Positions 1 through 56,798 of a DNA stretch of 64,000 nt are shown one piece after another. The stretch comes from a virus (Duplodnaviria > Heunggongvirae > Uroviricota > Caudoviricetes), in IMG/VR virus record IMGVR_UViG_2681813318_000003, one strand, 5' to 3'. The translations under genes were made by a program, and so were the position numbers. The number at the start of each line of letters is the position of its first letter. The first letter of the stretch is position 1. The notes beneath the pieces are model-generated. The model searched no databases, was not told the origin of the DNA, and saw only the letters and a list, made by a program, of their open reading frames with translations.

Positions 1-322
1 ACCCCATGCGAATAAGAGTGTTTATTGCGGCTTTGGTAGACTCTGATTCGACGCTGACTTTTCGAAACTCTTGAACCTCTTTCGCCAACTTGTATGTAAT
101 TGTGCAGGGGACGATTGCAGCCCAGCCTTTCTCATGACTGTTAATGACCATCTGGATGTGACCATCCAGAATAGGTTGATTAGGCATGTTATTGAAAACG
201 TCTGCCTGTTTTTGAATGTGAAGAAAAAGCCTTGCCAGCGCCATTTGCTCACTACGAGACAAGGGATTATCAAGAGGACTTTTTGCAAAAGCTGCTATAC
301 GCTGTGCATCAATGCCAAACAT
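1..322 (-). CDS. hypothetical protein, partial (C-terminus beyond window start)
   Basis: Minus-strand frame opens at ATG 320-322 (TGATG overlap with the stop of the upstream gene) and runs to position 1 with no stop; track ORFs 22..288 and 71..382 are in other frames. Confidence 0.45.
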   Translation of the reverse strand, partial: MFGIDAQRIAAFAKSPLDNPLSRSEQMALARLFLHIQKQADVFNNMPNQPILDGHIQMVINSHEKGWAAIVPCTITYKLAKEVQEFRKVSVESESTKAAINTLIRMG

Positions 323-1026
323 CAGCGCACCTCACCATCTTTATGGCTGGAGTTAACTTCCGCCATTAAATGTCTGACGTAATCGACAAGAGAGCCATCT
401 GGTGGAATCTGGCATTCCTCAACTAACTGGAAGTAGATATCCGCTGCATTACGTGTATTACTACCCGCGCATATTCTTTCTTCCCGAAGTGCATGAAGCT
501 CGTTGATCAAACGGTCACACTCTCCGTTACGCTGATCCACAACGGCCTCAAGCTCTGCGACGCGTTCACCTGGCGTCTTACCTTCTTTGCGTTGGATGGT
601 AACGACGAAATCGCCAATTGCAGGGACGTTGTAATCCAGCTCAAGGTAGTTTTTGGCACCGCTGCGGACGAACTCACCCGCGAACATGGTGGCGAACATC
701 GCAGAGGCCACTTCGCCGTTGAAAAGTGACTCCAGATCTAACGGAGTCCCGGCAGCAAGAGCCTCTTTTGCTGTATCCATTGCATCCATGAACCGATCAA
801 ACTCACTAGCGCGCTTTTCCAGGTCTTTCCATTGCTCGCTCCAACGTTTGGCAACGAAGTCTATGAATGTTTTCGCGGATTCATCAAAATCCCCCTCAAA
901 CTTAACGATGCCTTTATCAATAATGATCTGGCCTACCGCATCCTCTGCATAACCTTTCAATGTAAACTTGAAAGGAAAATCAGAATGGCCTGTGACGTTA
1001 AAATGCTCTAACTGGAGGTTGTTCAT
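322..1026 (-). CDS. hypothetical protein
   Basis: 234-aa ORF; start preceded by the conserved AAGGAAAACAC-like leader seen at many genes in this window. Confidence 0.6.
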   Translation of the reverse strand: MNNLQLEHFNVTGHSDFPFKFTLKGYAEDAVGQIIIDKGIVKFEGDFDESAKTFIDFVAKRWSEQWKDLEKRASEFDRFMDAMDTAKEALAAGTPLDLESLFNGEVASAMFATMFAGEFVRSGAKNYLELDYNVPAIGDFVVTIQRKEGKTPGERVAELEAVVDQRNGECDRLINELHALREERICAGSNTRNAADIYFQLVEECQIPPDGSLVDYVRHLMAEVNSSHKDGEVR

Positions 1027-1087
1027 GTGTTTTTCTCTTATCGTTTAGTTATTACATTCTTACACAAATTAAGTAAGTATTTACCTA

Positions 1088-2773
1088 TCATTTAACGCAT
1101 TTGAAAACGTATACGCTGACTGTGATCCCTGTGTCTTCAAACTCGTTGGTAAACGACTTCCCTCTGGCATAAACGTAATTATCCATCGTCATCCAGTCCA
1201 GTATTGGCGCAGTGCCCGGCAATACTGCTACAAGACGCCCGCCGACTTTCAGATGCCCCAGCGCAGCCAGCGTGTGCTCTCTATGACGACCAAGCGAGTA
1301 CGGCGGGTTCATAACGATTTTGTCGAACTGATAACCTGCGTTGTCCTCAGACCACTTTATGAAGTCGCAGCAAATCGTGTTCGTATACCCTTTTCCACGC
1401 AGGATATCAGCGAAGAGAGGTGCGATTTCTATGCAGGTAACATCTTCCAGATCGGCGTTAATATAGGCCAGAAGATCCCCACGTCCGGCTTGAGGCTCCA
1501 ACAGCTTCTCACCAGGCTTCAATTCAGTGGCTCTGGCAACGTACTCAGCAATCAAGCGTGGGGTAGGGTAGAACTGGTGTGATTTTGTATCCGGTATTAA
1601 ACCGGTAGCCACAATCGTATTTAGCGTATGGCCGATCTCATACGGGAACTGCCAGTGCTTTTTCTCCTGCACGCCGCCAATGAAGCTCAGTGTGCGCTCA
1701 AGCTCTTCCACCTGCGACTTCTGGAGAGCTGAATCAGAGAAGTACCATACGCCTTTGTCTTTGCTCAATCGCCCGTCACGAAGCGCAGTGCGAACCGGCA
1801 TGGAGATCGTCTTCTGGATTAACCCGAACTGCTTTGGTGCCCGTGTTTTTGGCGCAGTTCGGCATGGCGCGGGAATTGCAGCAGGCATACTGTAAGCCAG
1901 CACCTCATTCAACTTCCAGGCCACGTCAGGATGTATTTCAAAGTGAACGTTGCCGTTCTTGAACATCTTCACGCGCATCAGATTTCCATCGACGTTCATC
2001 CAGTCACCGGTCTGGCAGTCGTTTGCCCGATACGCAGCTGATAGCACCTCAGCAGTGCGGTTGATGGTAATAAATTCTTTGTGCGCGAAGAAATGAAGCA
2101 AGACACGCAGATCGTCGATGTAGTCCTCTTTGCGATAGTTCACGCTAACGCTGTCCCGCCAGAAATCAGAAATGCAGTCAGCGATTATCAGACGCTCGCT
2201 GAAACCGTTTGTCTTATTTGTCTTGTGCGCAGGACTCAGCGCCTTAAACAAGCCATACACGCGCTCAGAGAGATATTTGTGCCTGTCATTCAGCAAATTA
2301 AGCATCGTGGGTATGACCGTTTCTGCTTTGAACTCCGGTACACCAACGAACTCTTTAACCTTCATCTGGTAGCCGGTTCTGTCAGTTTTGATGACTTCCT
2401 GTTTGCCCTCTATAAACTGCTCGCGCCACTCATCTCGACGGGAAGCTGGCATGATCAGCAAAACGTTAGTCATATCCGTGACCTTCCTCCAGTACTCGGC
2501 CCAAATATTCTGTTTCACCCATTCCAGATCGACTTTATCCAACCAACCTCGATTTAAACGCGAGCGATCTTCATCTGGTCGATGGTTTAGTCGCAGCAGG
2601 CGATTAATCATGTTGTGGCGTTCGTCGCCATAAACGAAGTCGTGTACCTGATACATGAAGGCGATCTCTTTCTCGCACTCGGCCACGATTTCGTGGATGA
2701 CATTCATTTCCTGACGATAGTCGATAGCCGTGTTTGAGCTGGCATCGTCGATGATGGAAAGGGCTGTATTCAT
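1088..2773 (-). CDS. putative N6-adenine methyltransferase domain protein with ~350-aa N-terminal extension
   Basis: C-terminal third carries FYPTP, LEPQAGRGDLL (SAM-binding motif I-like) and NPPY (motif IV); N-terminal part has no motif I recognise. Confidence 0.55.
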   Translation of the reverse strand: MNTALSIIDDASSNTAIDYRQEMNVIHEIVAECEKEIAFMYQVHDFVYGDERHNMINRLLRLNHRPDEDRSRLNRGWLDKVDLEWVKQNIWAEYWRKVTDMTNVLLIMPASRRDEWREQFIEGKQEVIKTDRTGYQMKVKEFVGVPEFKAETVIPTMLNLLNDRHKYLSERVYGLFKALSPAHKTNKTNGFSERLIIADCISDFWRDSVSVNYRKEDYIDDLRVLLHFFAHKEFITINRTAEVLSAAYRANDCQTGDWMNVDGNLMRVKMFKNGNVHFEIHPDVAWKLNEVLAYSMPAAIPAPCRTAPKTRAPKQFGLIQKTISMPVRTALRDGRLSKDKGVWYFSDSALQKSQVEELERTLSFIGGVQEKKHWQFPYEIGHTLNTIVATGLIPDTKSHQFYPTPRLIAEYVARATELKPGEKLLEPQAGRGDLLAYINADLEDVTCIEIAPLFADILRGKGYTNTICCDFIKWSEDNAGYQFDKIVMNPPYSLGRHREHTLAALGHLKVGGRLVAVLPGTAPILDWMTMDNYVYARGKSFTNEFEDTGITVSVYVFKCVK

Positions 2774-2881
2774 AATTACACCATTAAATAATTTGTTTTC
2801 TTATTGGTGTAATTATCGCAAACTTGAAAAGGCATAAAAGCTGCATTCATAGGCGTTACAGCAGATTTAAGGCGTAAAAAT

Positions 2882-2897
2882 GGGGGCTTTCGCCCCC
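2882..2897 (-). terminator. hairpin GGGGGC-TTTC-GCCCCC followed by a U-run on the minus strand
   Basis: Perfect 6-bp GC stem; minus-strand read continues ATTTTTAC; sits between the stop of 2921..3484 and the start of 1088..2773. Confidence 0.5.
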
Positions 2898-2920
2898 TGT
2901 CGACTTGTGCGGTATTAGAA

Positions 2921-3484
2921 TTATGCGTATTGCGTTTTGTGCGGTTGCTTATTCAAGTCGTGGCGATGCGTAAGCTCCCGCATCATGTCTTCAAGCCGAC
3001 TTTTCGTATCATCAAGCTGGTCGGCCATTGCTCCCAAAAGCTGGCGAACGGCCATTGGATCGTCACTGTTTAGTGATGGCATTTTATATCCCGCTTTAGA
3101 AGACATAAGATTGATTGCAGACATCAACATCGTTAGAGAAGACTTAAGTCCGGCAATTTCACGATCTTTGCTGGCAATAATCGTCTCACTATTGTTACCG
3201 TCATGGGTTCCTTGAGTCTCGCTCACCATATCCAAAGTCGCCTGCAACTTATTAGCGCGCTCTTTTTCAGCAAGATAATGAACACCGAAATGGTGTGCCA
3301 AAGCTACAACCTGAGTTGGCTCTTCAAAGGTGGAATTAAAATTAAGTACTGTAAACAGTCTCTCAAATATAGAAACGTCTTCTGTTCCCCGAACAATGCC
3401 TAACATTTTGACAAGTTCATTAGCATCCATTTCTTCGAATAGGGCGTTTTGTTCATCAGCTATTGCTTTGCATTTCTCGCACAT
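2921..3484 (-). CDS. hypothetical protein
   Basis: 187-aa ORF; conserved leader and AAACAAGTTGTTT palindrome upstream. Confidence 0.55.
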   Translation of the reverse strand: MCEKCKAIADEQNALFEEMDANELVKMLGIVRGTEDVSIFERLFTVLNFNSTFEEPTQVVALAHHFGVHYLAEKERANKLQATLDMVSETQGTHDGNNSETIIASKDREIAGLKSSLTMLMSAINLMSSKAGYKMPSLNSDDPMAVRQLLGAMADQLDDTKSRLEDMMRELTHRHDLNKQPHKTQYA

Positions 3485-3781
3485 GTGTTTTCCTTAATGC
3501 TTAAACAAGTTGTTTTCTAATTGGATTTATTGTGATGTGGCATAAAAGGGGAGCAAGCTAAACGTAAAGGTGCAAACTCTCTATTTCGGTCAACGAAACA
3601 CAAGGGCCATTTGGCCCTTGTCATTAACACGTTGCTTTACGGACTAGCGGATAAGCGAAGTAGATCGCCAGGCCAATGAGGACGCCATCAGAAATGACAG
3701 ACATCATCTTTCCCGTAAAATCCACCAACACCGCCATCACCAGAAGAGCAATGACGGTCACAAGCCGGAATCTCTCAAGCA

Positions 3782-4207
3782 TTAGAGATAAGCATCCAGT
3801 GACAACTGAAGCGCCTGGGCTATCTTTTTCAGCGCCTGCTCTTCTTGTTCTCCAATACCGTCTTGGTCGGCAATATCAAGGCACAGACACAGAACATCGA
3901 CCGCCTCTGGAGTACCCGCAATATCAGACAGCTCACGAATAGCCTGTGCATTAGCAGAACGAGGGGACGCTTCGTAACGAGCACGGATATTGGCGCTCAT
4001 TTGGGCAATTTCACCAGCAAACGGAGAAAACGCAGGCAGAGCTGCAATTGTCTTCTCAAGAATGGCAATTTCTTTTGCGTCACATGTGCCGTCGGCATAG
4101 GAGATCATGTACGCGCCCCACACGGTGGCCTCAACCGCATCACGGTTCTCCATTTTTTTGACTTCAATAACAGCTTTACGAGTTTTCTTTTTGAAGAAAC
4201 CTAACAT
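3782..4207 (-). CDS. TerB-like domain protein
   Basis: 141 aa; residue pattern around a conserved DG resembles the tellurite-resistance TerB fold, recalled from memory. Confidence 0.45.
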   Translation of the reverse strand: MLGFFKKKTRKAVIEVKKMENRDAVEATVWGAYMISYADGTCDAKEIAILEKTIAALPAFSPFAGEIAQMSANIRARYEASPRSANAQAIRELSDIAGTPEAVDVLCLCLDIADQDGIGEQEEQALKKIAQALQLSLDAYL

Positions 4208-4300
4208 GTGTTTTCCTTTTATTATTTGTCAGAACAAGTTGTTTTCTAGTTTCATAAATTGCTTGCGCAAAGATGGTCAATGCATATGCACTAACAACCG

Positions 4301-4489
4301 TCAGAAATAACCAAGTACCGAACCAACTGGAAAAACAAAAATCCCAACTACACGAGCCAAGGTCATGCCAGCCTGAAACTGGAGATCACCAGAGCAAACA
4401 AGTTTTATAATGTTCGATACCCAACCGGCGGCCATGAGGGCCAGAATTGCCAGCCAAATTTTTCCAAAGTGATTTGAAAACCAGTTCAT
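4301..4489 (-). CDS. small membrane protein
   Basis: 62 aa with two hydrophobic segments. Confidence 0.4.
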   Translation of the reverse strand: MNWFSNHFGKIWLAILALMAAGWVSNIIKLVCSGDLQFQAGMTLARVVGIFVFPVGSVLGYF

Positions 4490-4498
4490 ACAACCGCC

Positions 4499-4993
4499 TT
4501 AGTCACAACATGATCCTGAGTAACTGGATGAACTTGAGGTATCGCATCCACCGTCATCCCATCCAGAGTGACAGGACGCTCTACTGGAGTGGTGGTAATT
4601 GTCGTCGACGGAGGTGTGGTGATGGATGAATCCGGCATCAAAAGGCTCTGGCCGGCTGGAACAGCTACCGTCGCCAGTGAAACTATAATGAGAACGTAGG
4701 CCATTGGTTTCAGCCTCTTTCTTTGAAAATTTTCCATTCGAACTGTCCTTGTTGTTTTTCTCCTTCACTAAAGGCCGTGCATTTTTCGCTTGGTGTGAAG
4801 AACCAGAGGTAACAATCGCCCCCACGTTCGCAACAACTGACGCTTGCTTATCTAAACGTTCATTCAGCAACCGAACGGTAGTCTCCAGTTCATCAAGACG
4901 TGACAGAACACGACCGCTAAATAATTCGGCCAAAATTTGACGTAGTGAACGAGGACGTTTAGTTGCAGAAGTGAAATAGGTTTGACGTGCCAT
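4499..4993 (-). CDS. hypothetical protein; 3' half overlaps an alternative frame (4486..4737) that encodes a signal or TM segment
   Basis: N-terminal ~80 aa look protein-like; C-terminal part is low complexity while the other frame encodes MAYVLIIVSLATVAV followed by a Thr/Pro-rich tail. Confidence 0.35.
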   Translation of the reverse strand: MARQTYFTSATKRPRSLRQILAELFSGRVLSRLDELETTVRLLNERLDKQASVVANVGAIVTSGSSHQAKNARPLVKEKNNKDSSNGKFSKKEAETNGLRSHYSFTGDGSCSSRPEPFDAGFIHHHTSVDDNYHHSSRASCHSGWDDGGCDTSSSSSYSGSCCD

Positions 4994-5138
4994 GTGGACT
5001 CCATCCAGTGTCAGAAAGAGTTGCGGCTGGCGATTGCCAGCCGCCTTTCTCGTTCCATCCTGGAACTGTGTCTTACCGACACATTGTCATCCTGACGCCG
5101 ATAAGATACATGATTTAATATGATAGGTAAACACTTAC

Positions 5139-5732
5139 TTACCACTTGTTGTAAATAAAACCAATGTCTTTCTTGTGAGGCGTATCGGCTGCGGAAAAAG
5201 CTGCGATCTTCGCGAGTCGATCACATATTTCATTTTCACGATGCCCGGCGTGACCTTTAACCCACTTCCAGCGAACATTATGTCGACTTGCGGCCTCATC
5301 CAGACGTTTCCACAGATCAACATTCTTTACCGGTTTTTTATCAGAAGTCATCCATCCATTACGTTTCCACCATTTCATCCACTGTGTCATGCCGTTTTTC
5401 AGATACTGGCTATCAGAGTACAAAATAACGTTGCATGGATATTTCAAACGCTCCAGCCCGATAAGTGCGCCCATCATCTCCATGCGGTTATTGGTGGTGC
5501 TATGAAAACCATCTGAGAACTCGCGTTCCTCACCACGATACTGGAGAACGATACCGTAACCGCCCGGGCCACCCGGATTTTTAAGGCAAGAGCCATCACT
5601 AAAGATTTTCACGGTTTTGAGCTGGGGATTGAACTCTACGACAGGCGTTGTGGGATTGGTGCGGGGAGAATTTTTGTTTTTGTCTTTTTTGCGAGTTTTT
5701 GCTTGCGATCGGGCTGGTGTCTTCGTCGTCAT
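5139..5732 (-). CDS. rnhA: ribonuclease H
   Basis: RNase HI-like C-terminal region (FSDGSC...GYG..., ...VKGHAGH.ENE.CD.LA); start moved to ATG 5730-5732, preceded by AGGAG. Confidence 0.85.
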
Positions 5733-6316
5733 ATAAACTCCTGAATCAATCGCCGCGCCGATTTTTTTTCCTCGCGCGTGCGCACACGCGTGCGTGTTAA
5801 TAATTATTAAAATAAACAAATTACTTCCCAGAACAGGTTTTTATAAACCTGAACTGAACGAACGAAGTGAGTGAAGTTCACCTCGAACGAAGTGAGAGGT
5901 TGTCTTTTCAGGTAATACTCTCCCAGGGAGGTGAGTATAAAATTCCTCACCAACCTGGTCGTTTCATAACCTGAAAAGCTATGGTCTAAGTCTACTGCCA
6001 GCTTAGACTTGGGAAGTTATGGATGACAGCACCCCAGAACCGAGATCTTCCCACACTTTATGAAGGGGAGTACTGGATTCAACCTCTCGAAACACCCCAG
6101 ACTCGACAATCATAAAGTGACCCTTGTCTCTGCTCACTTTGGTTCCCCCTTCCCCGACACCTATACGGCACCGGTTCTACGCTGGTAGTGAGCTTTTTTA
6201 AACCTGACGCCAGTGACGCTTACCCCCACCCATCAGGTCGAGCCTCCAGTCTACGACTGGAAACTATCATATCTTAGCACTTACAATTCACTTTATGAAT
6301 AGTTTGTACTTATCTA

Positions 6317-6547
6317 TCATTGTGATTGATTATTTTCTCGACCATGTAGTTGAACATTCAAGGCAAACACCTCATTGATCAACTCACCTAAAAGCTGTTC
6401 AACAAGTTCGCGATGCTCGCCAAGATGCAAGCACTTAATTGCCCACTCGTACAAGTTGAAAGCCTGCTCACGATCTTTCATCATTTCACGAGCCTGGGCC
6501 AGAAAATCGCTCTCTACGAGCGCAACGACATTAGTCGGGTATGACAT
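6317..6547 (-). CDS. hypothetical protein
   Basis: Start moved to ATG 6545-6547, preceded by AAGGAAAC. Confidence 0.45.
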   Translation of the reverse strand: MSYPTNVVALVESDFLAQAREMMKDREQAFNLYEWAIKCLHLGEHRELVEQLLGELINEVFALNVQLHGRENNQSQ

Positions 6548-6652
6548 GTTGGTTTCCTTAAAGTGGTTCATAAAATCGATTTTAAAGCGTCTGGGAAGGG
6601 GTTCTAGTGGATTCTGTAGTGATGTTCAGGTCTGGAGTCTCTGATACAAAAC

Positions 6653-6711
6653 AGCCTGCTTCCGTATATTAATAATTAATATGTAGTTATTTATATATAC
6701 AGAAGCAGGCT
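6653..6711. repeat. inverted-repeat element (17-bp arms AGCCTGCTTCCGTATAT, AT-rich spacer), copy 1 of 2
   Basis: Near-identical element at 54331..54384; flanking GTTCTAGTGG-like sequence is also shared. Confidence 0.6.
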
Positions 6712-6732
6712 AATTACAGACGCCAGAACAAA

Positions 6733-7326
6733 CTAAGCAGCCTTCTTTGATGGTCTTTTTTTCCTGATCACATTCGCAGGATCATACCCTCCCAGACTTT
6801 TCATGACGTCCAAAGGGATCTTGCTTATAGAGTGCCCAGCGTCCTGACAGAATCCTCGAAAAACAACGAGCATACTGCCACCGGGGTTGATGTTTACTTC
6901 TACCTGACCCAAATTGACGTCAGGCTCGACAAACGCTACGCGGCCACCAGACAGAATAATCGTCTCATTCGCACACTCTGTTGCACGCTCATACCACTTT
7001 GTATCGAGGGATTGAGGAATTAGCATCACTGTTGTAACTCCGCGAGCCTGCTCACGTATAGCCGCATCAATCCAGGGGGAGATTTTGGAGTAGGGTGGAT
7101 TGAGGAAGGCAATTGTACCTGGCTGTCCCCATTCAGATTTCAAAGCATCACGCTCAACGCCTATGAAAATAGGCAGCTTTGCGTTGTCCTTGTTGCAGGC
7201 AACGTCAACATCAAATGTCACTCCAAGATAACGTTGAATGGCAGAAAACAGCCAATCAGGTGTTCTCCAGAGGTCACGAAGAGAGTTGTCGCGCTTTCGC
7301 TGTTTGATTTTTTCGGCTGCAATCAT
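6733..7326 (-). CDS. phage-type DNA N6-adenine methyltransferase (Dam-like)
   Basis: 197 aa with N-terminal WRTP and central NPPY motifs typical of the small phage Dam family. Confidence 0.75.
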   Translation of the reverse strand: MIAAEKIKQRKRDNSLRDLWRTPDWLFSAIQRYLGVTFDVDVACNKDNAKLPIFIGVERDALKSEWGQPGTIAFLNPPYSKISPWIDAAIREQARGVTTVMLIPQSLDTKWYERATECANETIILSGGRVAFVEPDVNLGQVEVNINPGGSMLVVFRGFCQDAGHSISKIPLDVMKSLGGYDPANVIRKKRPSKKAA

Positions 7327-7336
7327 CTTCTTTCTC

Positions 7337-7357
7337 GATAGGTAAGTGATTACCTAT
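7337..7357. promoter_or_regulatory. palindromic motif GATAGGTAAGTGATTACCTAT, 10 nt upstream of the Dam-like gene start
   Basis: Member of the recurrent GGTAAG..CTTACC palindrome family. Confidence 0.5.
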
Positions 7358-7509
7358 TTTTGCATTTGATTTTATGTCTGGCAATCAAATAAAACGCGCC
7401 AGAAATGCAAACGAGAAGCTCTCTGGCGCGTTTTTGTGGTGCTGGGTATGTGATTGGCTTACCCAGCACTATAAAGCTCTCTATGGGCTTTATTTTCAGT
7501 AGGGGGACG

Positions 7510-8319
7510 TCATCCAATAGTGTACTCCGCTACAAACTTCTTAACGATCGGTGATTCTTCGTTCAATGTTAGATTTCCACCGTCTCTAACGGCAATTCCT
7601 GTCGCTGGAAATACAGCCATCATTTGCCCAGCCTGAGTTGACGCAGTGTTAAGCGGATACGGTTTTTCTGGATTGCTCATTAAAGCAATCTTAATACTAT
7701 TACTTGTAGCCTTCTTTTCTGTGAGAAGGTGTCTCATGGAAATTACCGTGTAAACACTAATATCTGGACCTCCGCTAAACCAATTAAGAAGGTTTAATAT
7801 CTTATCCTTTGCTTTGACAGGCGCGTTTTCGTAAGTGTCTAAGAAAATATCTTTTTCTAAGCCTGCTTTATTGAAAAACAAATCATCTTTATCACTTAAA
7901 GTAAAACGAGGACCTCTTGCAGTACGAGCTTTTTTATTTGTATTGCTATCATTTGACTGTTGAACTTTTAATTCATCATTAACCTCAACACACTCTTCAA
8001 CCTCAATAAACCCCAATTGTTCTGGCTCGTTTTCGGCAGATTCAACACTTTCAGCCTTAATTACGTTTATAGGCTCATGAGCTAACTCCAACTCATTTAA
8101 AGCGGAGCTGAAATCACCTGCTTTTTCTTCATTGAACAGTTCTTCGGCAACATCATCAGAACTCATGGCTACGCCAGCATCGAGGCCGAGAAGCAGATCG
8201 TCAATATCATCAGTATTTTCAACCTGTGCAGCTTTTTTTACTGGTTCATCAAGTGATTGCAACATGGCTGTCAGCTCATCCAGATCATCATTTGTCATTA
8301 CATTTTCAACCGAACTCAT
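7510..8319 (-). CDS. hypothetical protein with strongly acidic N-terminal region
   Basis: 269 aa; first ~110 aa are dominated by Asp/Glu; AGGAG upstream of the start. Confidence 0.55.
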   Translation of the reverse strand: MSSVENVMTNDDLDELTAMLQSLDEPVKKAAQVENTDDIDDLLLGLDAGVAMSSDDVAEELFNEEKAGDFSSALNELELAHEPINVIKAESVESAENEPEQLGFIEVEECVEVNDELKVQQSNDSNTNKKARTARGPRFTLSDKDDLFFNKAGLEKDIFLDTYENAPVKAKDKILNLLNWFSGGPDISVYTVISMRHLLTEKKATSNSIKIALMSNPEKPYPLNTASTQAGQMMAVFPATGIAVRDGGNLTLNEESPIVKKFVAEYTIG

Positions 8320-8479
8320 GTAAGTCTCCTTCTGTTTAGTTGCATTTGCGTTTCGATGGCTACATTTTGACTAAACCTATCAGGCGGAAAAGTATTAAAT
8401 ACAGGCAGGAAATGATTGAAAGGCGACTGTTCTTTAAAAGAAAGCCTGCTTCAAACTCTCTTTAAAGCAGGCTTTTGTT

Positions 8480-9037
8480 TTACACAATTTCAGAGGGTAA
8501 TTTAAAAAATCCGTATTTATTACGTGCCTTAAAGAAGCATTGCATCATTAAGTTTGTGTCATATAAGGCACTATGTGCTTTGGCATGATCGTATATAAAG
8601 CCAAGAGAGAAGGCCAATTCTTCAAGGCGAGGACGTTTACCGTCTTCTGTGGCCCACAATCCCGATAACATAGTATCTATAACAGGAACTTCTGGCAGTC
8701 TTACTCCATACCCTGAAAACTCGTGTCGAATAAATGGTATATCAAACGCTTCGCCGTTATGAGCAATCCACGCACTACATGCCCCCATATAAGCGCCAAT
8801 TTCGCTGGCATGATTTGACAACAAAGGTTCAGCTGCGAGCTGTTCTAATGAAATGCCATGAACGGCTTGAGCTTTCGGATCTATGTTTCTGCGAGGGTTA
8901 AAACGCATCTCCAGACTATCAATATGTCTCTGTGTCTCCAGTTCATAGCGGGTAATTGCGATTTCAATAATTTTATGACCAGCAAGGAAATCCAGTCCCG
9001 TAGACTCGATATCGATGCCTGCAACAATCGTTGTCAT
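8480..9037 (-). CDS. DnaQ-like 3'-5' exonuclease (DEDDh family)
   Basis: Motifs DIESTGL, HNGEAFDIPF and HSALYD. Confidence 0.8.
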   Translation of the reverse strand: MTTIVAGIDIESTGLDFLAGHKIIEIAITRYELETQRHIDSLEMRFNPRRNIDPKAQAVHGISLEQLAAEPLLSNHASEIGAYMGACSAWIAHNGEAFDIPFIRHEFSGYGVRLPEVPVIDTMLSGLWATEDGKRPRLEELAFSLGFIYDHAKAHSALYDTNLMMQCFFKARNKYGFFKLPSEIV

Positions 9038-9046
9038 CAGAACTCC

Positions 9047-9466
9047 TTACAACTTCTTAGCGCCCTTAAGTAGGGCGCTACGTACAAATTGAGCCGCTTT
9101 TTTCAAAGTTTCTTCACTGGTTTCACAGACAATCGGATCTTTCCACTTACCTGACGCAGTGTTGAGAATATTGATTTGGTTGCTATCCAGACAAATAGAG
9201 ATATAAAGCACCGTGCCACCAGCCAGCATCAAATGCATAGGAAACAGAGGCTTTTTACTGTCTTCACTGAACTGAGACATGGCGATGTTAATGGCTTCAC
9301 CTACTTGTGCGCCAACAAGCCCCTGCGCAGTTTCGAATATGGCACGAATAGCCAGACGAGCCTCTCGATCGCTCATAAGCGACCGGGAATGTTCGTCCGC
9401 TACACGAATCAAAGCCTCTGTTGTTTTCCGATCCAGTTCATCTTCAAGCAACATTTCACTAAACAT
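9047..9466 (-). CDS. hypothetical protein
   Basis: 139-aa ORF in operon context. Confidence 0.5.
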   Translation of the reverse strand: MFSEMLLEDELDRKTTEALIRVADEHSRSLMSDREARLAIRAIFETAQGLVGAQVGEAINIAMSQFSEDSKKPLFPMHLMLAGGTVLYISICLDSNQINILNTASGKWKDPIVCETSEETLKKAAQFVRSALLKGAKKL

Positions 9467-9527
9467 TTTTTATCCTTAACCCATTTTGAGAGTTTTATTG
9501 TCGCAATGTCGAAGAGGCGAACAATTT

Positions 9528-10172
9528 CTAATGAACGGTTACTCGGCCACAGAACCGGTTTTCTATCTTTTCTACAGCGTTATCTAGCATTCTCATCACT
9601 GATCTGGCTCTTGCTTCAACCGTGCGATATCGGTTGGAAACGACGAAGGTTTGCAGATCTCCCCTTTGCGGATGCAGGTGAATTTTTGTCAGTTCCCCGC
9701 ACATCAACGCATCAATACGAGCGACATACAGACGGTCTAATGATGCTCGTTGTGATCGCAAGTAATCTCGCTCTGAGAGAGCGACTCCCGGGCGTAAGCC
9801 AGCAATGGCGTTAAAGTTTGAAATAGCAGTTTTGTGGCAAAACTTTTCGATATCGAGGGCTAACTCAATACATCGATCTTCATTGGTATGGCCGACCAAA
9901 TCCAACGTGTAGGCCATAACATCAGCAGGTGTGCGATCGATAACAAAGCCTTCAACACCACGCGTAAGTAGCTCTATATGCTTTGCTATTTCCATTTGAA
10001 TCTGAAGCCGCTCATATAGAGGCATAGACTCACCTACTCGAACACCGAGGCGGCTCATCAAACTTCCGACACCAGCATCCACGTAAGGGATTCCGTAATG
10101 TTTGTCGATATATTTAGCCAGGGTTGTTTTCCCACTGCCCTGAGCACCAGTGATCCCAATCCGGTAATCCAT
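9528..10172 (-). CDS. P-loop nucleotide kinase, possibly dNMP kinase
   Basis: Walker A GAQGSGKTT at the N-terminus; sits within the nucleotide-metabolism cluster. Confidence 0.55.
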   Translation of the reverse strand: MDYRIGITGAQGSGKTTLAKYIDKHYGIPYVDAGVGSLMSRLGVRVGESMPLYERLQIQMEIAKHIELLTRGVEGFVIDRTPADVMAYTLDLVGHTNEDRCIELALDIEKFCHKTAISNFNAIAGLRPGVALSERDYLRSQRASLDRLYVARIDALMCGELTKIHLHPQRGDLQTFVVSNRYRTVEARARSVMRMLDNAVEKIENRFCGRVTVH

Positions 10173-10648
10173 TACGACCTTCTGTATACGATCTGCGAAA
10201 AGCCAGGCTCTTCCTCGCTGGCTCGTTGGGTATAAGCTGTTTCAACAGGCACAAAGCCTAAGTTACGCATCATGCTTGCCGGGAAGAATGCATCGGCGTT
10301 TGGTACATCAACGCCGATGTGGGAGAGCCAAATCTCTTCAACATGCGGCATGAATAGCGAGTAAATTTGTTCCCCGCCAATCACCCACACAGGCTCTGGT
10401 AATCGCAACACATCATCCACACCAGCAGGGTAGAATCCATTTGGTACAAAGCCATGAGAGCGCGTCAAAACGAGGTTATGACGCTCTGGAAGAGGGCGTT
10501 TGAGACTTTCCATCGTTTTACGCCCCATAACAACAGTGGCGTTTTTGGTGAGTCTCTTAAATAGCTTCAGATCGGTAGAACAACGCCAGGGCAGTTCGTT
10601 CGCTATGCCGATCTCATAGTTACGGCCAACAGCAGCTATCATCTTCAT
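10172..10648 (-). CDS. folA: dihydrofolate reductase
   Basis: MIAAVGRNYEIG...LPW N-terminal signature and GG..Y C-terminal signature of DHFR. Confidence 0.85.
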   Translation of the reverse strand: MKMIAAVGRNYEIGIANELPWRCSTDLKLFKRLTKNATVVMGRKTMESLKRPLPERHNLVLTRSHGFVPNGFYPAGVDDVLRLPEPVWVIGGEQIYSLFMPHVEEIWLSHIGVDVPNADAFFPASMMRNLGFVPVETAYTQRASEEEPGFSQIVYRRS

Positions 10649-11058
10649 TTGCTCACCTCATAGATGACCGGTCTATGATGAGAGTCAGCTAAAGCGGCAC
10701 GGAGTCGAGGATCGTGCACCAGCGCAGCGATAAGCAGATCGCCTTTATGCTCCGCTAATGTGCGCTTAATATGCTTCTCATAACTGGTGCCATTCGGTAC
10801 GAGATGAAGCCAGTCGTAATCAACGCCAAAATCTTTCAGCCATCGTTTAGTGGGCGCTTCAAGAGTTTCAGAGCGGCTACTGATAAGCACCACTTCAGCC
10901 CCTGAGCGAGCAAAACCACGCAACATACGGCTGGTGGGGAAAATGAGTTCATCACCGGCAATGAGCTGGCCTGCATCCGCGTCAGATACAGATTTACGAT
11001 GACTGGTATTTGCCAGCACACCTTCAATTTCGCATAAGACATACATACCTCTTGCCAT
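10645..11058 (-). CDS. hypothetical protein, possibly HAD-like with a non-canonical motif I
   Basis: YVLCEIEGVLANT resembles the DMDGVLADF motif of 5'-nucleotidases but with Cys-Glu in place of Asp-Asp; start moved to ATG 11056-11058, just after the thymidylate synthase stop. Confidence 0.4.
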   Translation of the reverse strand: MARGMYVLCEIEGVLANTSHRKSVSDADAGQLIAGDELIFPTSRMLRGFARSGAEVVLISSRSETLEAPTKRWLKDFGVDYDWLHLVPNGTSYEKHIKRTLAEHKGDLLIAALVHDPRLRAALADSHHRPVIYEVSK

Positions 11059-11059
11059 A

Positions 11060-12190
11060 TCACACCGCCACTGGAACCTTGATCCACGGTAGAGGGTCAT
11101 AGCCAAGAATTAAAACCTCGTCCCATTTGAAATCATCCAACTCTGACCATTCATGAGGGAAAATAACGACCGGATCTGAATGCTCTGGAGCCTGTCGTTT
11201 CATTAGCTCACACACACCTTCCATTTGGTTGTTGTACAAATGCACGTCAAAGCCAAAATGTACAAATGCACCGGCCATGTGACCCGTAATCTTCGCGAGA
11301 AAATGAGTGAGAATGCCATAGCCAGCAATATTGAATGGCATACCAACAAAAGTGTCTACGCTACGCTGTACGAGGCAGGAGTTGAGGATGCGTTTGGGGA
11401 TTCCAAGTTCATCCAGTTCAGCTTCAGTAACACTGCCGTCCATCTCCAGATCGTATAGCATCTTGGTGTAGATAGACTCATAACCGAGGCGACTGTGTTG
11501 AAGACCAATGTCAGTTGCCATCGTTAAACGGGTTTCAAAATCAAGCTCACGACTCCACAAAGAGAAGACAAAGTGGCAAGGTGGCAGTTTCATATCCTCA
11601 AGCTCGCCTACGTTCCATGCGTTAAGCATGATACGACGATCGGTGGGGTTCGTGCGCAGTGTATCGACAATACGCTGTAGCTGATCGATTTCACGGGACA
11701 GCACTACGCGATCTTCACTGATACCCAGGTATCCCTCGACTTTGTACCCGCGTTCACGGAAAGTATCGATCTTGCTCAGATATTCACTATGGCTCACGAT
11801 GCGGGTATCTTCCCATCGACGCCACTGCTTACCGTAAACCGGCCCCAAATCGCCATTCTCATCGGCCCATGCATCCCAAATCTTAACGCCGTTATCCTTG
11901 AGAAATTGGATGTTGCCCGTGCCTTTCAGATACCACTCAAGTTCGACAAGCAGTGGCTTAAGATTTACCGCCTTTCCAGAAATAAGCGGCACAGTCCCAC
12001 CAGTAAGCATGTAGTAAGAGGGAACGTAGCAGGTGCTTAAAGTACCAGTGCCTGTGCGATCATCAGCCTGCACGCCGCTTTTAAGCACCGTCTCAATAAC
12101 TTTTGCATACGATGCGTTTGTTACCTGACCGTTCGTATGCTCACGATTCAAAAGGAGTGACACAAAAACCTCACAAAGATAAGTAACCAC
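11060..12190 (-). CDS. thyA: thymidylate synthase
   Basis: DRTGTGT, WADENGDLGPVYGKQWR and active-site LPPCH motifs; longer than bacterial ThyA, with insertions. Confidence 0.85.
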   Translation of the reverse strand: MVTYLCEVFVSLLLNREHTNGQVTNASYAKVIETVLKSGVQADDRTGTGTLSTCYVPSYYMLTGGTVPLISGKAVNLKPLLVELEWYLKGTGNIQFLKDNGVKIWDAWADENGDLGPVYGKQWRRWEDTRIVSHSEYLSKIDTFRERGYKVEGYLGISEDRVVLSREIDQLQRIVDTLRTNPTDRRIMLNAWNVGELEDMKLPPCHFVFSLWSRELDFETRLTMATDIGLQHSRLGYESIYTKMLYDLEMDGSVTEAELDELGIPKRILNSCLVQRSVDTFVGMPFNIAGYGILTHFLAKITGHMAGAFVHFGFDVHLYNNQMEGVCELMKRQAPEHSDPVVIFPHEWSELDDFKWDEVLILGYDPLPWIKVPVAV

Positions 12191-12247
12191 TTATTCCTTA
12201 AGTGAGTTTACATTTATTGAGGGAACAAGGCCAGATAGATAAAAAAA

Positions 12248-12266
12248 TGGTGGCCATAGGCCACCA
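12248..12266 (-). terminator. hairpin TGGTGGCC-ATA-GGCCACCA with a flanking U-run
   Basis: Minus-strand read has the hairpin followed by TTTTTTT; downstream of the 12335 stop. Confidence 0.55.
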
Positions 12267-12334
12267 AAAACGAATAGTTGTTTCAGAAATTTAACGCGCC
12301 AACGCAATATACACAGATAGATAACTACCTACAA

Positions 12335-13204
12335 TTATTTTTTGATCATTCCGTACATTGCTGAGGCTTTAGCTTGCTCAACAAAGGAGGATAAATCGAC
12401 ATCACTATAGGTTGGAGACTTCAGAATCTTTCCATCGGAAATTCGAAAACCGATCATCTTATCGGTGCCATCAGCATGGCGAAATCCCAGGTCAGAAGAG
12501 TCGTATTTGCAGTTGGCCACAGCATGGCGACGCTCTTCGGCATCTGCAGGCCATAATTTTGTCATGTTGGACCGATGAATTTCGCCAACCAGCTCGACGA
12601 CATTGATACCGAGGAAATCAGCCAGTCGATAGGTCATCATGCACGCCACATAGATTTTGTTCATTACACGGCGCAGTTCCTGAATCAGCTCAGAATCCTT
12701 AACAGTCTTGTTCTCAAGTTTATCTGCCAGCTCTTCGAGCATACATGACGCCTCACGAGCTTCCTGAAATGGCATTGCCATATCATCGAAAACAGTGTTA
12801 CCAGGCACAAAAATTGTCTGCATAAAGCGATCAATGCTCTGTTCCTGCGTGTAATAGGTCATGCCGGTAGAAATACCACCTTTGATGGCGACCATCGTAC
12901 CAACACCAACGTATAAAAAGTCGGCCATTGCATCCAGCAGTTGCTCAATATCCCCATTCATTGCGGCTGGAATACCTTCCACTACAGCTTCTTCATGAAT
13001 CAGGCTTGCACGGAGACGAAGCAGCTCTGGTGTCGGCATAACGCGTCTCGGATGCTGGAAGAGTTCATGAAACTGATCGACCATCTTGTAAATACTTTCA
13101 GTAGCTACACCATGACCTTCATGCAACTCATATGGTTCTGGCTTAAATCCAATGAGTCGATCGGTGGCAAGTTTCAGGTGGTCAGTCAGTTTGGTAAAGT
13201 TCAT
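12335..13204 (-). CDS. hypothetical protein, possibly an all-alpha NTP pyrophosphohydrolase (MazG/HisE-like)
   Basis: Two regions with EE..E and E...D acidic patterns on predicted helices; weak. Confidence 0.4.
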   Translation of the reverse strand: MNFTKLTDHLKLATDRLIGFKPEPYELHEGHGVATESIYKMVDQFHELFQHPRRVMPTPELLRLRASLIHEEAVVEGIPAAMNGDIEQLLDAMADFLYVGVGTMVAIKGGISTGMTYYTQEQSIDRFMQTIFVPGNTVFDDMAMPFQEAREASCMLEELADKLENKTVKDSELIQELRRVMNKIYVACMMTYRLADFLGINVVELVGEIHRSNMTKLWPADAEERRHAVANCKYDSSDLGFRHADGTDKMIGFRISDGKILKSPTYSDVDLSSFVEQAKASAMYGMIKK

Positions 13205-13281
13205 GCTAGTTTTGTTCCTTCTTAATTCTTGTGATCCATTGTGGCCCAGCGTTGCCAGGCCACATAATGCTTTGTATCGGT

Positions 13282-14424
13282 TTACAGGTCTGCAAACTGG
13301 CTTAGAGAAGCCTTATCCACGGTAGAATCGATCTGACCTACCAGATATGTGCTTTGCTCTGCCTCTTGTGGTGCAATTTGCAGTGTGTCGGTTAACAACC
13401 ACTTGTTCATCCAGACCAGCGGATCTGTGGTAACTTCTGGAAATAAAGCCTTCAGGCCAAGACGATTCATAGCCAGATTGGTGCGGTATTTTACATAGGT
13501 CTTCAGAATATCCGCGTTTAAACCAATCATCGAACCGTCTTTGAAGAGATAGTCTGCCCAGTTCATTTCTTGTTCGGCGACTGATTTCATGGTGTCGTAA
13601 ATGACGTTTTCTTCATCAGCAGCAATCTCTTTCCACAATAAACCTTCGCGACCGGTACGCATGAAGCGGATCATGCGTTCAGTTCCTTCGCAATGCAGAG
13701 CTTCATCACGGGCAATAAAGCGCATAATTTTGGTGTTGCCCTCAAGCAACTTCCGTTCGCCAAAGGCAAACGTACATGCAAAACTTACATAGAAACGGAT
13801 CGCCTCAAGCGCATTAATGGACACCAACGTGCGGAAAAGCTGACGGTGCAAAGGGTATGGCTCCCAGCCATATTCATTTACGTACAGACGTTCAAACTCT
13901 TTCTCACCTAACGACTGGCGCTCGCAGGTCATCCCATAAAGCCTGTCATATTCAGCAGAGATACTGATCGCTCGGTTGATGATTTCTTCATCCGTAACAA
14001 TACCGTTAAAAACAATGCTCGGATCGTCCACCATGCCACGAATAATGTGGGTGTAGCTGCGGCTATGGATAGTCTCAGAGAAAGACCATGTTTCAACCCA
14101 CGTTTCCAGTTCAGGAATAGAGATAAGCGGCAGCAGCGTTGCATTTGGGCTACGTCCCTGAACTGAATCGAGTAACGTTTGATAACGGAGATTGCTCAGA
14201 AAAATGTGACGTTCGTGGTCCCGCAGCTTCGTGTTGAAGTCGATACGATCGCTCGAAATATCAACTTCTTCCGGCCGCCAGAAGAAAGACAATTGACGTT
14301 CAATCAACTTTTCAAAATCACGGTATTTTTGCTGATCGTAACGTGCCACGTTGACAGATTGTCCGAGGAACATAGGCTCTTTGGTTGCATCATTAGCACC
14401 CAAACGGAACGTTGAATATGACAT
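13282..14424 (-). CDS. nrdB: ribonucleotide reductase class Ia beta subunit
   Basis: Long stretches match enterobacterial NrdB as I recall it (for example [37 protein letters not shown]). Confidence 0.95.
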
Positions 14425-14528
14425 GTGTTTTCCTTTTGCTTATTGATGTGTTTAAACAAGTTGTTATCTTATTTGTTTAAACAAGGTTTACAAATCAAAG
14501 AGAAGGTGGGGATATCCCCCACCATATG

Positions 14529-16844: not shown

Positions 16845-16861
16845 GTATCACCAAATAAAGA

Positions 16862-16883
16862 GGGCCACTAAATATAGTGGCCC
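16862..16883 (-). terminator. hairpin GGGCCACTA-AATA-TAGTGGCCC between the RuvC-like gene and nrdA
   Basis: 9-bp stem; minus-strand downstream sequence is TCTTTATTTGG. Confidence 0.45.
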
Positions 16884-16917
16884 ATGTTAATAGATAAGCA
16901 CTTACCTATCAACGAGA

Positions 16918-17487: not shown

Positions 17488-17496
17488 ATAGTCTCC

Positions 17497-22841: not shown

Positions 22842-22919
22842 ATGTCATTTTTCTGTGATTGTTAGCCGAGGCAACGATAACCCACCAGGTGCGCCGAAGG
22901 TAGTAAATGCCTGTTTTAA

Positions 22920-23000
22920 TTATTCACATATCCACAGGATAGATCCTAATAAAGAGATCCATAGATAGATCCTTGTATAGATCAAATAAGATCCCCGATC
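22920..23000. promoter_or_regulatory. origin-like region: two DnaA-box-like 9-mers and six clustered GATC sites
   Basis: TTATTCACA (22920-22928) and ATATCCACA (22928-22936); GATC at 22942, 22956, 22968, 22980, 22990 and 22997. Confidence 0.7.
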
Positions 23001-23041
23001 GCTGTAAGCCGCGCCACGACTGGTCTGAAGCCATGTTCATG

Positions 23042-23142
23042 TATGCTACCAGCGGTAATTGATAGTCTGTCAACGGTTCGCCGTATGCTGCCAACTGTTT
23101 TTGGTATGCTGCCAGCGGCAAATCAAGTATGCTGTCAGCGGT
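23042..23142. repeat. five iterons (TATGCTRYCAGCGGT-like) upstream of repA
   Basis: Copies start at 23042, 23064, 23084, 23105 and 23128, spaced 20-23 bp. Confidence 0.8.
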
Positions 23143-23162
23143 TGAATGACAAAGGTGTCCAC

Positions 23163-24257
23163 ATGTCCACAAAAAATAAAAAAGGTAAAAATAACAAAGA
23201 AGTAGAAGATAATCTCGACAACTTTGAAGAAGGTTCCCTTGAATTGTACACAGGGGAACTTGTCCCTAATAGCAACAATACAGTCCAACCAATTGCGTTG
23301 ATGCGGCTGGGGTTGTTCGTGCCCACGCTCAAGGGGACAAAATACAGCAAGCGTAACAAGCCAAATGAGATCGATGCTTCAAAGGAGCTTGTTCAGCTCG
23401 AAGTAGCCCGTTCTGAAGGTTATTCCGATATCAAGATAACCGGTCCTCGTCTCGACATGGATCATGATTTCAAAACGTGGGTGGGCGTTGTGCGTTCGCT
23501 GGCAGAATACGGCGAACCTAACGGTCGTGTCGAGTTAAGCATCACGAAATTTGCGAAGTTTTGTGGCTATCCATCGTCACAGATCCGCAAAACACTCCGC
23601 GACCGGCTTACAAACAGTCTTTTGAAGATCATGCGTACAACTCTGTCTTTTCAGAGAACGTATGAAGAAAAGAACGTCGACGGCTCTAACAAGATCTCGC
23701 TTCTGATGGTGCACCTCATCAATAGCGTGGACTACAACGAGCAGAAAGATACGGTGGTGTTCTATGCAGAACCGAAGCTGGCCGAACTATATCGCTTTGA
23801 CCATAAGGTTCTTTTGCAGTTAAAGGTTATCAATAAGCTACCACGCAAAGAAACAGCACAGGCTCTGTACACCTTCATCGAAAGTCTTCCAACCAAGCCT
23901 GCGCCGGTATCGCTTGCTCGATTACGTGCGCGACTCAATTTGAGTAGCAGGAATGTCAGCTCGCAGAATCAGACTATACGTAACGGCTTAAAAGCTCTCC
24001 AAGATTTGGGCTATCTCGAATACAGCGAGATTAAGCGAGGGCGGTCGATCTATATCCAGATTCACAGCCGCAATCCAAAACTCAAAGTCGCACCGCCAAA
24101 ACCTGAAGACATCGAACCCAAAAAACCAGATGAGAAAGCTGGGGAAATTGATGCCAAACAGAACATTATCAACAAGATAACCGAACTTTCGCAGAATTTG
24201 ACGCCTGAAAATATCAAGATGATTGAGATCCTTTCCAATAGTCTCAAACTGCTTTGA
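23163..24257 (+). CDS. repA: iteron-type plasmid replication initiator
   Basis: Flanked on both sides by iterons; start moved to ATG 23163 (AAAGGTG upstream) because the first 40 codons of the track ORF are iteron DNA. Confidence 0.75.
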   Translation: MSTKNKKGKNNKEVEDNLDNFEEGSLELYTGELVPNSNNTVQPIALMRLGLFVPTLKGTKYSKRNKPNEIDASKELVQLEVARSEGYSDIKITGPRLDMDHDFKTWVGVVRSLAEYGEPNGRVELSITKFAKFCGYPSSQIRKTLRDRLTNSLLKIMRTTLSFQRTYEEKNVDGSNKISLLMVHLINSVDYNEQKDTVVFYAEPKLAELYRFDHKVLLQLKVINKLPRKETAQALYTFIESLPTKPAPVSLARLRARLNLSSRNVSSQNQTIRNGLKALQDLGYLEYSEIKRGRSIYIQIHSRNPKLKVAPPKPEDIEPKKPDEKAGEIDAKQNIINKITELSQNLTPENIKMIEILSNSLKLL

Positions 24258-24374
24258 TATGCTGTCAGCGGTGAAATGTATGCTATCAGCGGCTATTTTT
24301 CTGAAAAGTATGCTGTGAACGGTTAAAGATATGCTACCAGCGGTATAGTGAGATAAACGTATGCTGTGAGCGGT
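24258..24374. repeat. five iterons immediately downstream of the repA stop
   Basis: TATGCT[GA][TC][CG]A[GA]CGG[TC] at 24258, 24279, 24309, 24330 and 24360. Confidence 0.85.
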
Positions 24375-24535
24375 AAATCATCTATCACCACTCAATGCTC
24401 TGGCATACCTCCCCAGTGGTTACTAACCTCGAAGAGTGCATTCCATATAGGTTTGCGCTCACTAACATTCTATTGCCGTTGCGCTGATTGCTTGTAGTGA
24501 AAGGCATTTATTGCCTGCTGCTCCCTGATAGAACG

Positions 24536-24789
24536 TATGCTGTCAGCGGTGTTTTATTGAGGAATTTTTGTTTGGATATGCTATCAGCGGTAATTAATGG
24601 TATATGTCAGACCTTCGTATGCTGCCAGCGGTAATTTTGTTCTGGTTATAACCATACCGGTACACATTATTCATGCAATGTCTTAAGTATGCTGTCAGCG
24701 GTAAAAAATCGAGTAAAGTATGCTGTGAGCGGTGAGATAAACTCTCGATATGCTATCAGCGGTAATTGATTGTGTATGCTGTCAGCGGT
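24536..24789. repeat. seven more iterons (second downstream cluster)
   Basis: Copies at 24536, 24577, 24618, 24688, 24719, 24749 and 24775. Confidence 0.85.
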
Positions 24790-48918: not shown

Positions 48919-49043
48919 ACCAACTCCTAGCTAACGGATGAAAGTATTCTTACAAAAACTTAAGTATGTATCTACTTATAATTTTAGGTGCAATAGTTCC
49001 CTATACGAGGATGCCGGGCTTATAGTCTGCCCGGCATTCACCA

Positions 49044-49457: not shown

Positions 49458-49689
49458 GTTGGCTTCCCTTTATTTATATTTATTGCAGGTATTAGTTAAT
49501 CAAAACACGAGCAGTGCCACAATAATTAAATGGCGTACTATTTCTTATGGTTATTAGTTTCCCGGTAACTTTACCGACCATAAACTAAATCAACAAAGCT
49601 GACATATTAACTAAATTTAAGTACCCTTTTCGCACACTTGACGCTTGCCGCGTCTAAACTGTTCATCCTATATCAACAGAACAAAAAAT

Positions 49690-54330: not shown

Positions 54331-54384
54331 CCTGCTTCCGTATATATTTAATAAGTTACTTATTATTTATATACAGAAACAGGC
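54331..54384. repeat. inverted-repeat element, copy 2 of 2 (paralogue of 6653..6711)
   Basis: CCTGCTTCCGTATAT...ATATACAGAAACAGG with a similar AT-rich spacer and similar upstream flank. Confidence 0.6.
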
Positions 54385-56797: not shown

Positions 56798-56798
56798 T

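Follow-up and report, generated by a model that had tools for sequence, protein, structure and literature searches.

A phage-type Dam-like methyltransferase gene and a P1-type, GATC-rich origin on an SSU5-like phage-plasmid: probably two independent modules

The window analyzed here is a stretch of 64,000 nucleotides from a virus of the Caudoviricetes (IMG/VR record IMGVR_UViG_2681813318_000003). On its minus strand an open reading frame at 6733..7326 starts with ATG and encodes a protein of 197 amino acids, which an earlier note on this DNA had taken for a phage-type Dam-like enzyme carried by the element itself. Profile searches confirm that description. The PF05869 'Dam' profile, which represents the T1/VT2 'Dam' family, matches residues 13–173 with an E-value of 1.7e-37 and 129.1 bits (cut-off 28.1), the NCBIfam equivalog model TIGR01712 (phage_N6A_met) is passed with 112.5 bits at a cut-off of 97.05, and phrog_111 is matched with an E-value of 7.8e-65. 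Residues 76–79 form the catalytic NPPY of motif IV, (D/N)PPY. In an alignment with T1 Dam, the VT2-type Dam and M.Phi93DAM this motif is invariant, as are W20, T22 and P23 of an N-terminal W-x-T-P element, D41 of a D-x-D element, N48 and C-terminal residues. The protein is deposited at 100% identity as WP_033803590, a 'phage N-6-adenine-methyltransferase' (NZ_CP027369), and its orthologue in Escherichia phage Cyrano, CYRAN_79, is 99% identical. A search of the PDB sequences with the methylase gave no match up to an E-value of 1. A text search of the literature for PF05869 returned generic uses only, and nothing relevant was found on the SSU5/pHCM2 methylase or its methylome.

The neighboring genes encode small hypothetical proteins, an RNase H and a DnaQ-like exonuclease. 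No nuclease of the restriction–modification type is annotated or was detected beside the methylase gene, and the enzyme is best described as an orphan N6-adenine DNA methyltransferase without an adjoining cognate restriction endonuclease, a designation that is not absolute as two of the neighbors are without family assignment. A second putative amino-methyltransferase is encoded at 1088–2773. Just upstream of the methylase gene lies a promoter-like site (7384–7356), in a scan for promoters and terminators that as a whole did not exceed the shuffled expectation (4 found versus 5.0 ± 2.8 in shuffles). Three GATC sites within 55 bp at the 3′ end of the gene (6766–6817) were rejected as a meaningful cluster; they are at chance level, because random placements usually give 3–4 sites per 60 bp.

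The target of the enzyme can be predicted from its characterized relatives. T1 Dam methylates GATC. The Stx-phage enzyme M.EcoVT2Dam is likewise a GATC methylase (PMC6602927), and GATC methylation by the lactococcal M.Phi93DAM was shown with SMRT sequencing and, once the gene had been cloned in a dam− host, with DpnI/DpnII digests (PMC4190342). Because these three family members all methylate GATC, it is the most likely target of the window enzyme and the parsimonious prediction. All of these proteins are small, orphan members of PF05869. T1 Dam, M.EcoVT2Dam and the window enzyme are encoded among phage early or replication genes, whereas the Phi93 enzyme lies among packaging genes, and the window enzyme differs from the other three in having a 25-residue basic C-terminal tail and an N-terminus of its own. 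The family as a whole is carried by 1,986 phage records, which include lambdoid Stx phages, lactococcal 936-type phages and T1-like phages.

The window enzyme could instead recognize a sequence other than GATC, or have relaxed specificity, and act as an anti-restriction shield for phage DNA that is unrelated to the origin. Its identity to the characterized GATC enzymes is a mere 39% (VT2-type), 30% (M.Phi93DAM) and 25% (T1 Dam, gene ST20 of the T1 record), a distance at which specificity is unpredictable, and the specificity of methyltransferases is able to change at identities well above 25–39% (PMC6602927). GATC methylation would moreover be of little added use in a Dam-positive host, and the second putative amino-methyltransferase would fit an element that invests in DNA modification. 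We nevertheless regard a different or relaxed target as unlikely, since GATC specificity was found in 3 of 3 retrieved characterized members, which come from phages of both Gram-negative and Gram-positive bacteria, and the protein passes TIGR01712. The non-specific adenine methylases Hia5, Hin1523 and Nma1821 were considered as relatives and ruled out: they have FxGxG and DPPY motifs, belong to the D12/alpha Dam lineage and are not PF05869 proteins, so that enzymes of the Hia5 type provide no counter-example to the prediction of GATC.

The surroundings of the gene identify the type of element. The methylase region is 98–98.6% identical to Escherichia phages Cyrano (pLF82, from strain LF82), CMS-2020a and PhiR41_1, and 77% identical to Salmonella phage SSU5. 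The region of the origin and repA is 99–99.4% identical to many plasmids of E. coli (about 110 kb) and E. albertii (62–64 kb), which are typed as 'rep_cluster_488' and non-mobilizable, and the backbone is about 98% identical to that of Cyrano and CMS-2020a. From these matches the window is assigned as the early, replication and maintenance half of a phage-plasmid of the SSU5 supercluster; the structural genes of NZ_CP027369, a complete relative of 109.6 kb, map outside the window. Between 322 and 22841 all gene-candidate open reading frames of at least 120 amino acids lie on the minus strand, and their products include RNase H, the DnaQ-like exonuclease, DHFR, Pnk, ThyX, MazG, NrdAB and SbcCD-like proteins. 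This block, which contains the methylase gene, is a lytic replication and nucleotide-supply module. In the SSU5-supercluster relatives the methylase gene is adjoined by the same genes as in the window.

The replicon is found 15.5 kb from the methylase gene. The left edge of the origin is marked by two tandem DnaA boxes (TTATTCACA and TATCCACA; 22920..22936, plus strand), which line up with the DnaA site annotated in P1 oriR. They are followed by an AT-rich tract (22940..23001) with a GC content of 36%, compared to a window average of 45.5%, which is composed of five 7-bp repeats of the form (T/G/A)AGATC(C/A) and a terminal CGATCG. The tract is homologous to the 'Dam methylation sites 1–5' of P1. 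Its six GATC sites are spaced by 14, 12, 12, 10 and 7 bp, and the tract is presumed to be the Dam-methylated, SeqA-bound opening region. A GC-rich spacer (23002..23036, 60% GC) containing GCCGCGCCACG, again conserved with P1 oriR, separates the tract from an incC-like array of RepA iterons (23037..23145, plus strand). This array is arranged as in P1 incC, with good GTATGCTGCCAGCGG iterons at 23041, 23083, 23104 and 23127 and a degenerate fifth copy around 23062. The right edge is formed by the DnaA-box-like palindrome TGTCCACATGTCCACA (23156..23171), which overlaps the start of repA; in place of the palindrome, a TATCCACA box is found in P1 and in the Klebsiella relatives.

The plasmid initiator gene repA (23163..24257, plus strand) encodes a protein of 364 amino acids when read from the ATG at 23163, while the RefSeq model is longer and starts at 23043. 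The product belongs to the P1 RepA/RepFIB family. It is matched by Pfam Rep3_N and is 43.5% identical to P1/P7 RepA over 76% of the protein (E-value 2e-64). Downstream of repA, at the position of incA in P1, an incA-like control locus (24257..24788, plus strand) contains 12 iterons in direct orientation. Over the window 20 iteron matches were found, compared to 1.2 expected, and 16 of the 20 fall in the intergenic DNA flanking repA. These coordinates provide a precise oriR/incC/repA/incA map for the widespread SSU5-type 'rep_cluster_488' family.

The relationship to P1 was examined in an alignment of 11 origins, comprising the window, three Klebsiella variants, a Salmonella variant, P1, two other P1-like phages, an IncFIB RepFIB replicon, Cyrano and SSU5. 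The tract of the window aligns with that of P1 heptamer by heptamer. None of the 11 origins departs from the first GATCC or the penultimate GATCCC, although their iterons are unrelated in sequence. The match at heptamer level, together with the invariant GATCC columns, leads us to classify 22914–24788 as an iteron replicon of the P1-oriR/RepFIB type. The claim in the earlier note that 22942–23000 is an origin, similar to those that depend on Dam, is borne out by this homology, as the tract occupies the position at which five 'Dam methylation sites' are annotated in P1 oriR. P1 oriR is the textbook example of a Dam-dependent plasmid origin, with control by Dam and SeqA known since the late 1980s, and it is inactive when unmethylated or hemimethylated. 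What Dam methylation and SeqA do at origins of the P1-oriR/RepFIB family was reportedly described by Abeles and Austin in 1987, by Abeles et al. in 1993 and by Gammie and Crosa in 1991, and the first of these studies is said to have established that the P1 origin requires methylation. We infer a similar Dam dependence for the origin in the window.

CMS-2020a and PhiR41_1 share the RepA of the window at 99.5–99.7% identity, whereas Cyrano and SSU5 carry another RepA allele, which is 48% identical and closer to that of RepFIB/pMT1. In the origin tract of the latter two phages only three GATC sites are left, the others being replaced by AGAACCA/AGACCCA. SSU5-like backbones swap replicons of the P1 family, and the integrity of the GATC tract differs among those replicons.

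The clustering of GATC sites at the origin is not due to a high overall frequency. The window contains 267 GATC sites, compared to 250.6 ± 11.7 expected, with a mean density of one per 240 bp. The six sites noted earlier within about 60 bp are indeed present, starting at 22942, 22956, 22968, 22980, 22990 and 22997, which is six in 59 bp, inside the 321-bp intergenic region upstream of repA. This is the sole place in the window with at least four GATC sites per 60 bp. When the 267 sites were placed at random, six or more within 60 bp occurred in 2 of 2000 trials, and a Poisson estimate gives about 0.0014 such clusters per window. In a scan of the complete 109.6-kb relative NZ_CP027369 oriR was again the only GATC cluster. 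Were the methylase to act at a particular locus, the origin, as the only GATC cluster on the element, would be the first place to consider.

The earlier note had suggested such a role as one of two options, the other being a different target. In this reading the methylase would be expressed in the plasmid state and keep the six-GATC origin methylated, and replication would not depend on the host Dam, for example where a host or a condition provides little Dam or none. Both parts are indeed present on one element, the sole GATC cluster of the 109.6-kb relative is oriR, the homologous P1 origin requires methylation, and there is the promoter-like site just upstream of the methylase gene, although as a match it is no better than those in shuffled sequence. 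The transcriptome of a lysogen argues against this proposal. In the plasmid state in LB the orthologue CYRAN_79 has log2(FPKM+5) values of 2.82 and 2.32, where 2.32 is the floor, and its maximum over all LF82 conditions is 4.14; the values of repA (CYRAN_63) are 7.39 and 6.63 in LB and 6.6–8.3 overall (S1 Table, PMC9928086). These data are from Cyrano, in which the methylase is 99% identical to that of the window but the RepA and origin variant are different, and in this relative the gene is silent, or nearly so, during plasmid replication. Dam-type enzymes work at very low copy number. The near-floor RNA level is for that reason strong, but not absolute, evidence.

Comparison of related plasmids shows that the gene and the origin can be separated. 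The E. albertii plasmid p2014C-4015-1 (NZ_CP034165; complete, 63.8 kb) has rep_cluster_488 as its single replicon, with a RepA 100% identical to that of the window and an identical tract in which all six GATC sites are intact. A homologue of the methylase was not found in it by tblastn, and it is without a counterpart of window positions 1–18634. At the level of the origin/repA query, a further six complete E. albertii plasmids of 62 kb are 99.3–99.4% identical. The deletion shows that the methylase is dispensable in these Dam-positive hosts, which is not proof that it never contributes. The converse arrangement is found in SSU5 and Cyrano, which have kept the methylase while three origin heptamers are without GATC. 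The plasmid counts are also discordant, with methylase orthologues in 721 plasmids and the RepA variant of the window in 484. RepFIB-type RepA was counted in 4,137 plasmids (2,505 of them conjugative); this type of origin resides overwhelmingly on plasmids that do not carry the methylase. Yersinia is absent from the listed methylase matches, although Yersinia plasmids carry this type of replicon. The methylase and the origin are therefore not co-inherited: p2014C-4015-1 has the identical origin but not the gene, SSU5 and Cyrano combine the gene with a different or decayed origin, and the counts disagree.

The recorded hosts are all Enterobacterales. Enterobacterales are Dam-positive, and this too argues against a need for self-supplied origin methylation. 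Expression in lysogeny, the E. albertii deletion, the distribution of the two modules, the decay of GATC sites and the gene context all speak against host-independent maintenance of origin methylation by the enzyme, a proposal that we consider very unlikely. The methylase probably has no dedicated function in origin maintenance and belongs to the lytic replication genes.

In view of the above, the explanation that we favor, with a probability of roughly 70%, is that two independent and known modules reside on one element, a P1-type origin served by the host Dam and an orphan Dam-like methylase of the lytic module. An own Dam and a GATC-dense origin would then be paired because a phage with a methylase of a type common in phages also has a P1-type plasmid replicon. 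In the plasmid state DnaA would bind the tandem boxes and RepA the incC iterons. Adenine methylation would be needed for opening of the AT-rich tract with its six GATC sites, and the hemimethylated tract would be sequestered by SeqA, while the 12 incA iterons would throttle copy number. Methylation of the origin would be supplied by the host Dam in this state, as expected because all hosts are Dam-positive Enterobacterales. The methylase gene would be silent in the plasmid state and presumably expressed upon induction. Its product, which is probably GATC-specific, would likely methylate new phage DNA, which is made in a burst too large for the scarce host Dam to keep up with.

A variant of this explanation adds a specific link to the origin and is compatible with it. 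A methylase that acts only in the lytic cycle would also yield packaged genomes that are fully methylated at GATC, so that oriR would be competent as soon as the DNA circularizes in a new cell, and establishment of the plasmid-prophage would be faster. The inactivity of the homologous P1 origin in the unmethylated or hemimethylated form is in agreement with this, as are the position of oriR as the single GATC cluster of the element and the conservation of the methylase in 721 SSU5-like plasmids. P1, the second classic phage-plasmid with this kind of origin, independently encodes a GATC methylase that is under repressor control and comes from an unrelated family, a situation that can be read as convergence. 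If establishment were primed in this way, it would represent a functional link between phage and plasmid lifestyles that has arisen convergently in P1, with Dmt, and in SSU5-like phage-plasmids, with the PF05869 enzyme. On the other hand, the methylase family is common in phages without a plasmid stage, such as those of the T1-like, Stx and 936 types, and the presence of the enzyme can thus be accounted for without any role at the origin; moreover, the Dam of the recipient cell could methylate incoming DNA within minutes. Furthermore, the accepted phage function of GATC methylation in P1 is cleavage at pac, not activation of oriR (PMC4190342). We consider this variant doubtful, though less so than a shift in target specificity. 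A P1-pac-like GATC cluster that could gate packaging by methylation was searched for in NZ_CP027369; the scan gave oriR alone and none near the terminase genes, so a P1-style methylation-gated pac site is not evident.

Returning to the preferred explanation of two independent modules, the closest known system is P1 itself. Both are phage-plasmids with an adenine methylase of their own, and the order of elements in P1 oriR is the same as in the window: tandem DnaA boxes, GATC heptamers, the GCCGCGCCACG spacer, iterons, repA and control iterons. The P1 record is annotated in this order as DnaA site, 'Dam methylation sites 5-1', incC iterons with PrepA, repA and incA. The window has six GATC sites and P1 five, with GGTCC as the second P1 heptamer; the iteron is GTATGCTGCCAGCGG in the window and GTGTGCTGGAGGG in P1; and the incA iterons number 12 and nine, respectively. 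The backbone is that of an SSU5-like siphovirus in the window and of a myovirus in P1. The methylases are not homologous, the window enzyme being a protein of 197 residues that matches PF05869 only, whereas P1 Dmt is a 754-residue C5+D12 fusion that matches PF02086 and PF00145. A direct comparison gave no significant similarity (BLASTP E-value 0.12, confined to the region around the PPY motif). The P1 dmt gene, annotated as a GATC methylase gene, is located 2.5 kb from oriR, and its promoter Pdmt bears the C1-controlled operator Odmt, from which it follows that Dmt is repressor-controlled.

Other iteron origins resemble that of the window without an accompanying enzyme. RepFIB (REPI, of IncF plasmids) and Vibrio cholerae ori2 also combine a DnaA box with a run of GATC sites, and methylation controls their initiation; ori2 strictly requires Dam (PMC6090056). 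RepFIB has five GATC heptamers in the 11-origin alignment. In ori2 the GATC sites lie inside the iterons, whereas in the window they form a separate tract. Both systems depend on the host Dam alone and have no methylase of their own. With a methylase that sits among the lytic genes and probably has no dedicated task at the origin, the finding is an ordinary one, with little significance beyond annotation, as the region is 98–99% identical to deposited phage-plasmids in which the methylase is already annotated. The combination that had been flagged is also already known from the paradigm phage-plasmid, since P1 has both a Dam-dependent oriR and its own GATC methylase. The origin of the window is a clear homologue of P1 oriR, and the same pairing occurs in P1 with an analogous but non-homologous enzyme.

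The minus strand of the window probably encodes two DNA methyltransferases. On the same strand as the Dam-like methylase gene (6733-7326), 4 kb from it, lies a gene at 1088-2773 whose 561-residue product carries a DUF4942 domain (E 1.7e-20). Both RefSeq and the Cyrano record, where it is CYRAN_90, label this product only as 'DUF4942 domain-containing protein'. The C-terminal part of this protein resembles class-I SAM methyltransferases, with LLEPQAGRGDL as motif I and IVMNPPYS as motif IV, and M.TaqI is a weak PDB match for the same region (E 0.099). The gene at 1088-2773 is probably the element's second gene for an amino-(N6A/N4C) DNA methyltransferase, in addition to the Dam-like one.

Two genes downstream of the methylase, a 44-aa open reading frame on the minus strand (6003-6137) is the counterpart of CYRAN_81, which is among the lysogeny-expressed genes of Misson et al. 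at 12-fold over local background, with a normalised count of 117 versus 6 for the methylase. It is a small lysogeny-expressed gene in a block that is otherwise silent.

Both RefSeq and GenBank place the start of RepA at the ATG at 23043, giving a protein of 404 aa. The ATG at 23163 (364 aa) is the more plausible start, since with the upstream codon all the incC-type iterons would be contained in the coding region, the part that resembles P1 RepA starts some 30 residues past the ATG at 23163, and an AAAGG motif lies 8 nt upstream of that codon.

The complete 63.8-kb E. albertii plasmid p2014C-4015-1 (NZ_CP034165; loci L009 and L010) is a decayed derivative of the phage-plasmid in the window. 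It has kept the replicon, some replisome genes (dnaB-like, primase, ligase and dnaE) and toxin-antitoxin genes, it is missing the stretch corresponding to window 1-18634, and it carries the IS elements ISEc20 and IS911 together with hdeAB. No capsid, tail or terminase products are listed for it in the PLSDB gene table, which is incomplete. Six more E. albertii plasmids, of 62 kb each, match the replicon region at 99.3-99.4%.

In this derivative plasmid an HNH endonuclease gene adjoins dnaE. The complete relative NZ_CP027369 has about 1.27 kb extra (88959-90229), without a counterpart at the window junction 28453-28457, and this stretch falls within a coding sequence whose annotated product is a LAGLIDADG family homing endonuclease. 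Homing elements seem to be gained and lost in the replication genes of this phage-plasmid family. Megablast gave no match longer than 800 bp to NZ_CP027369 for window 40946-44585, 48856-50851, 54384-55622, 56760-58207 and 59673-64000, although the two are otherwise 95-98% identical; these stretches presumably represent mosaic parts or variable cargo.

Around the methylase the window and Cyrano share about 98.6% identity, whereas their RepA proteins are only 48% identical. P1-family replicons are swapped between SSU5-like backbones. The origin at window 22914-23034 was compared with positions 1141-1261 of the origin loci of Cyrano (L004) and SSU5 (L005). The Cyrano/SSU5 origin has AGAACCA/AGACCCA where three GATC heptamers have decayed, which suggests that this allele would be less methylation-dependent.
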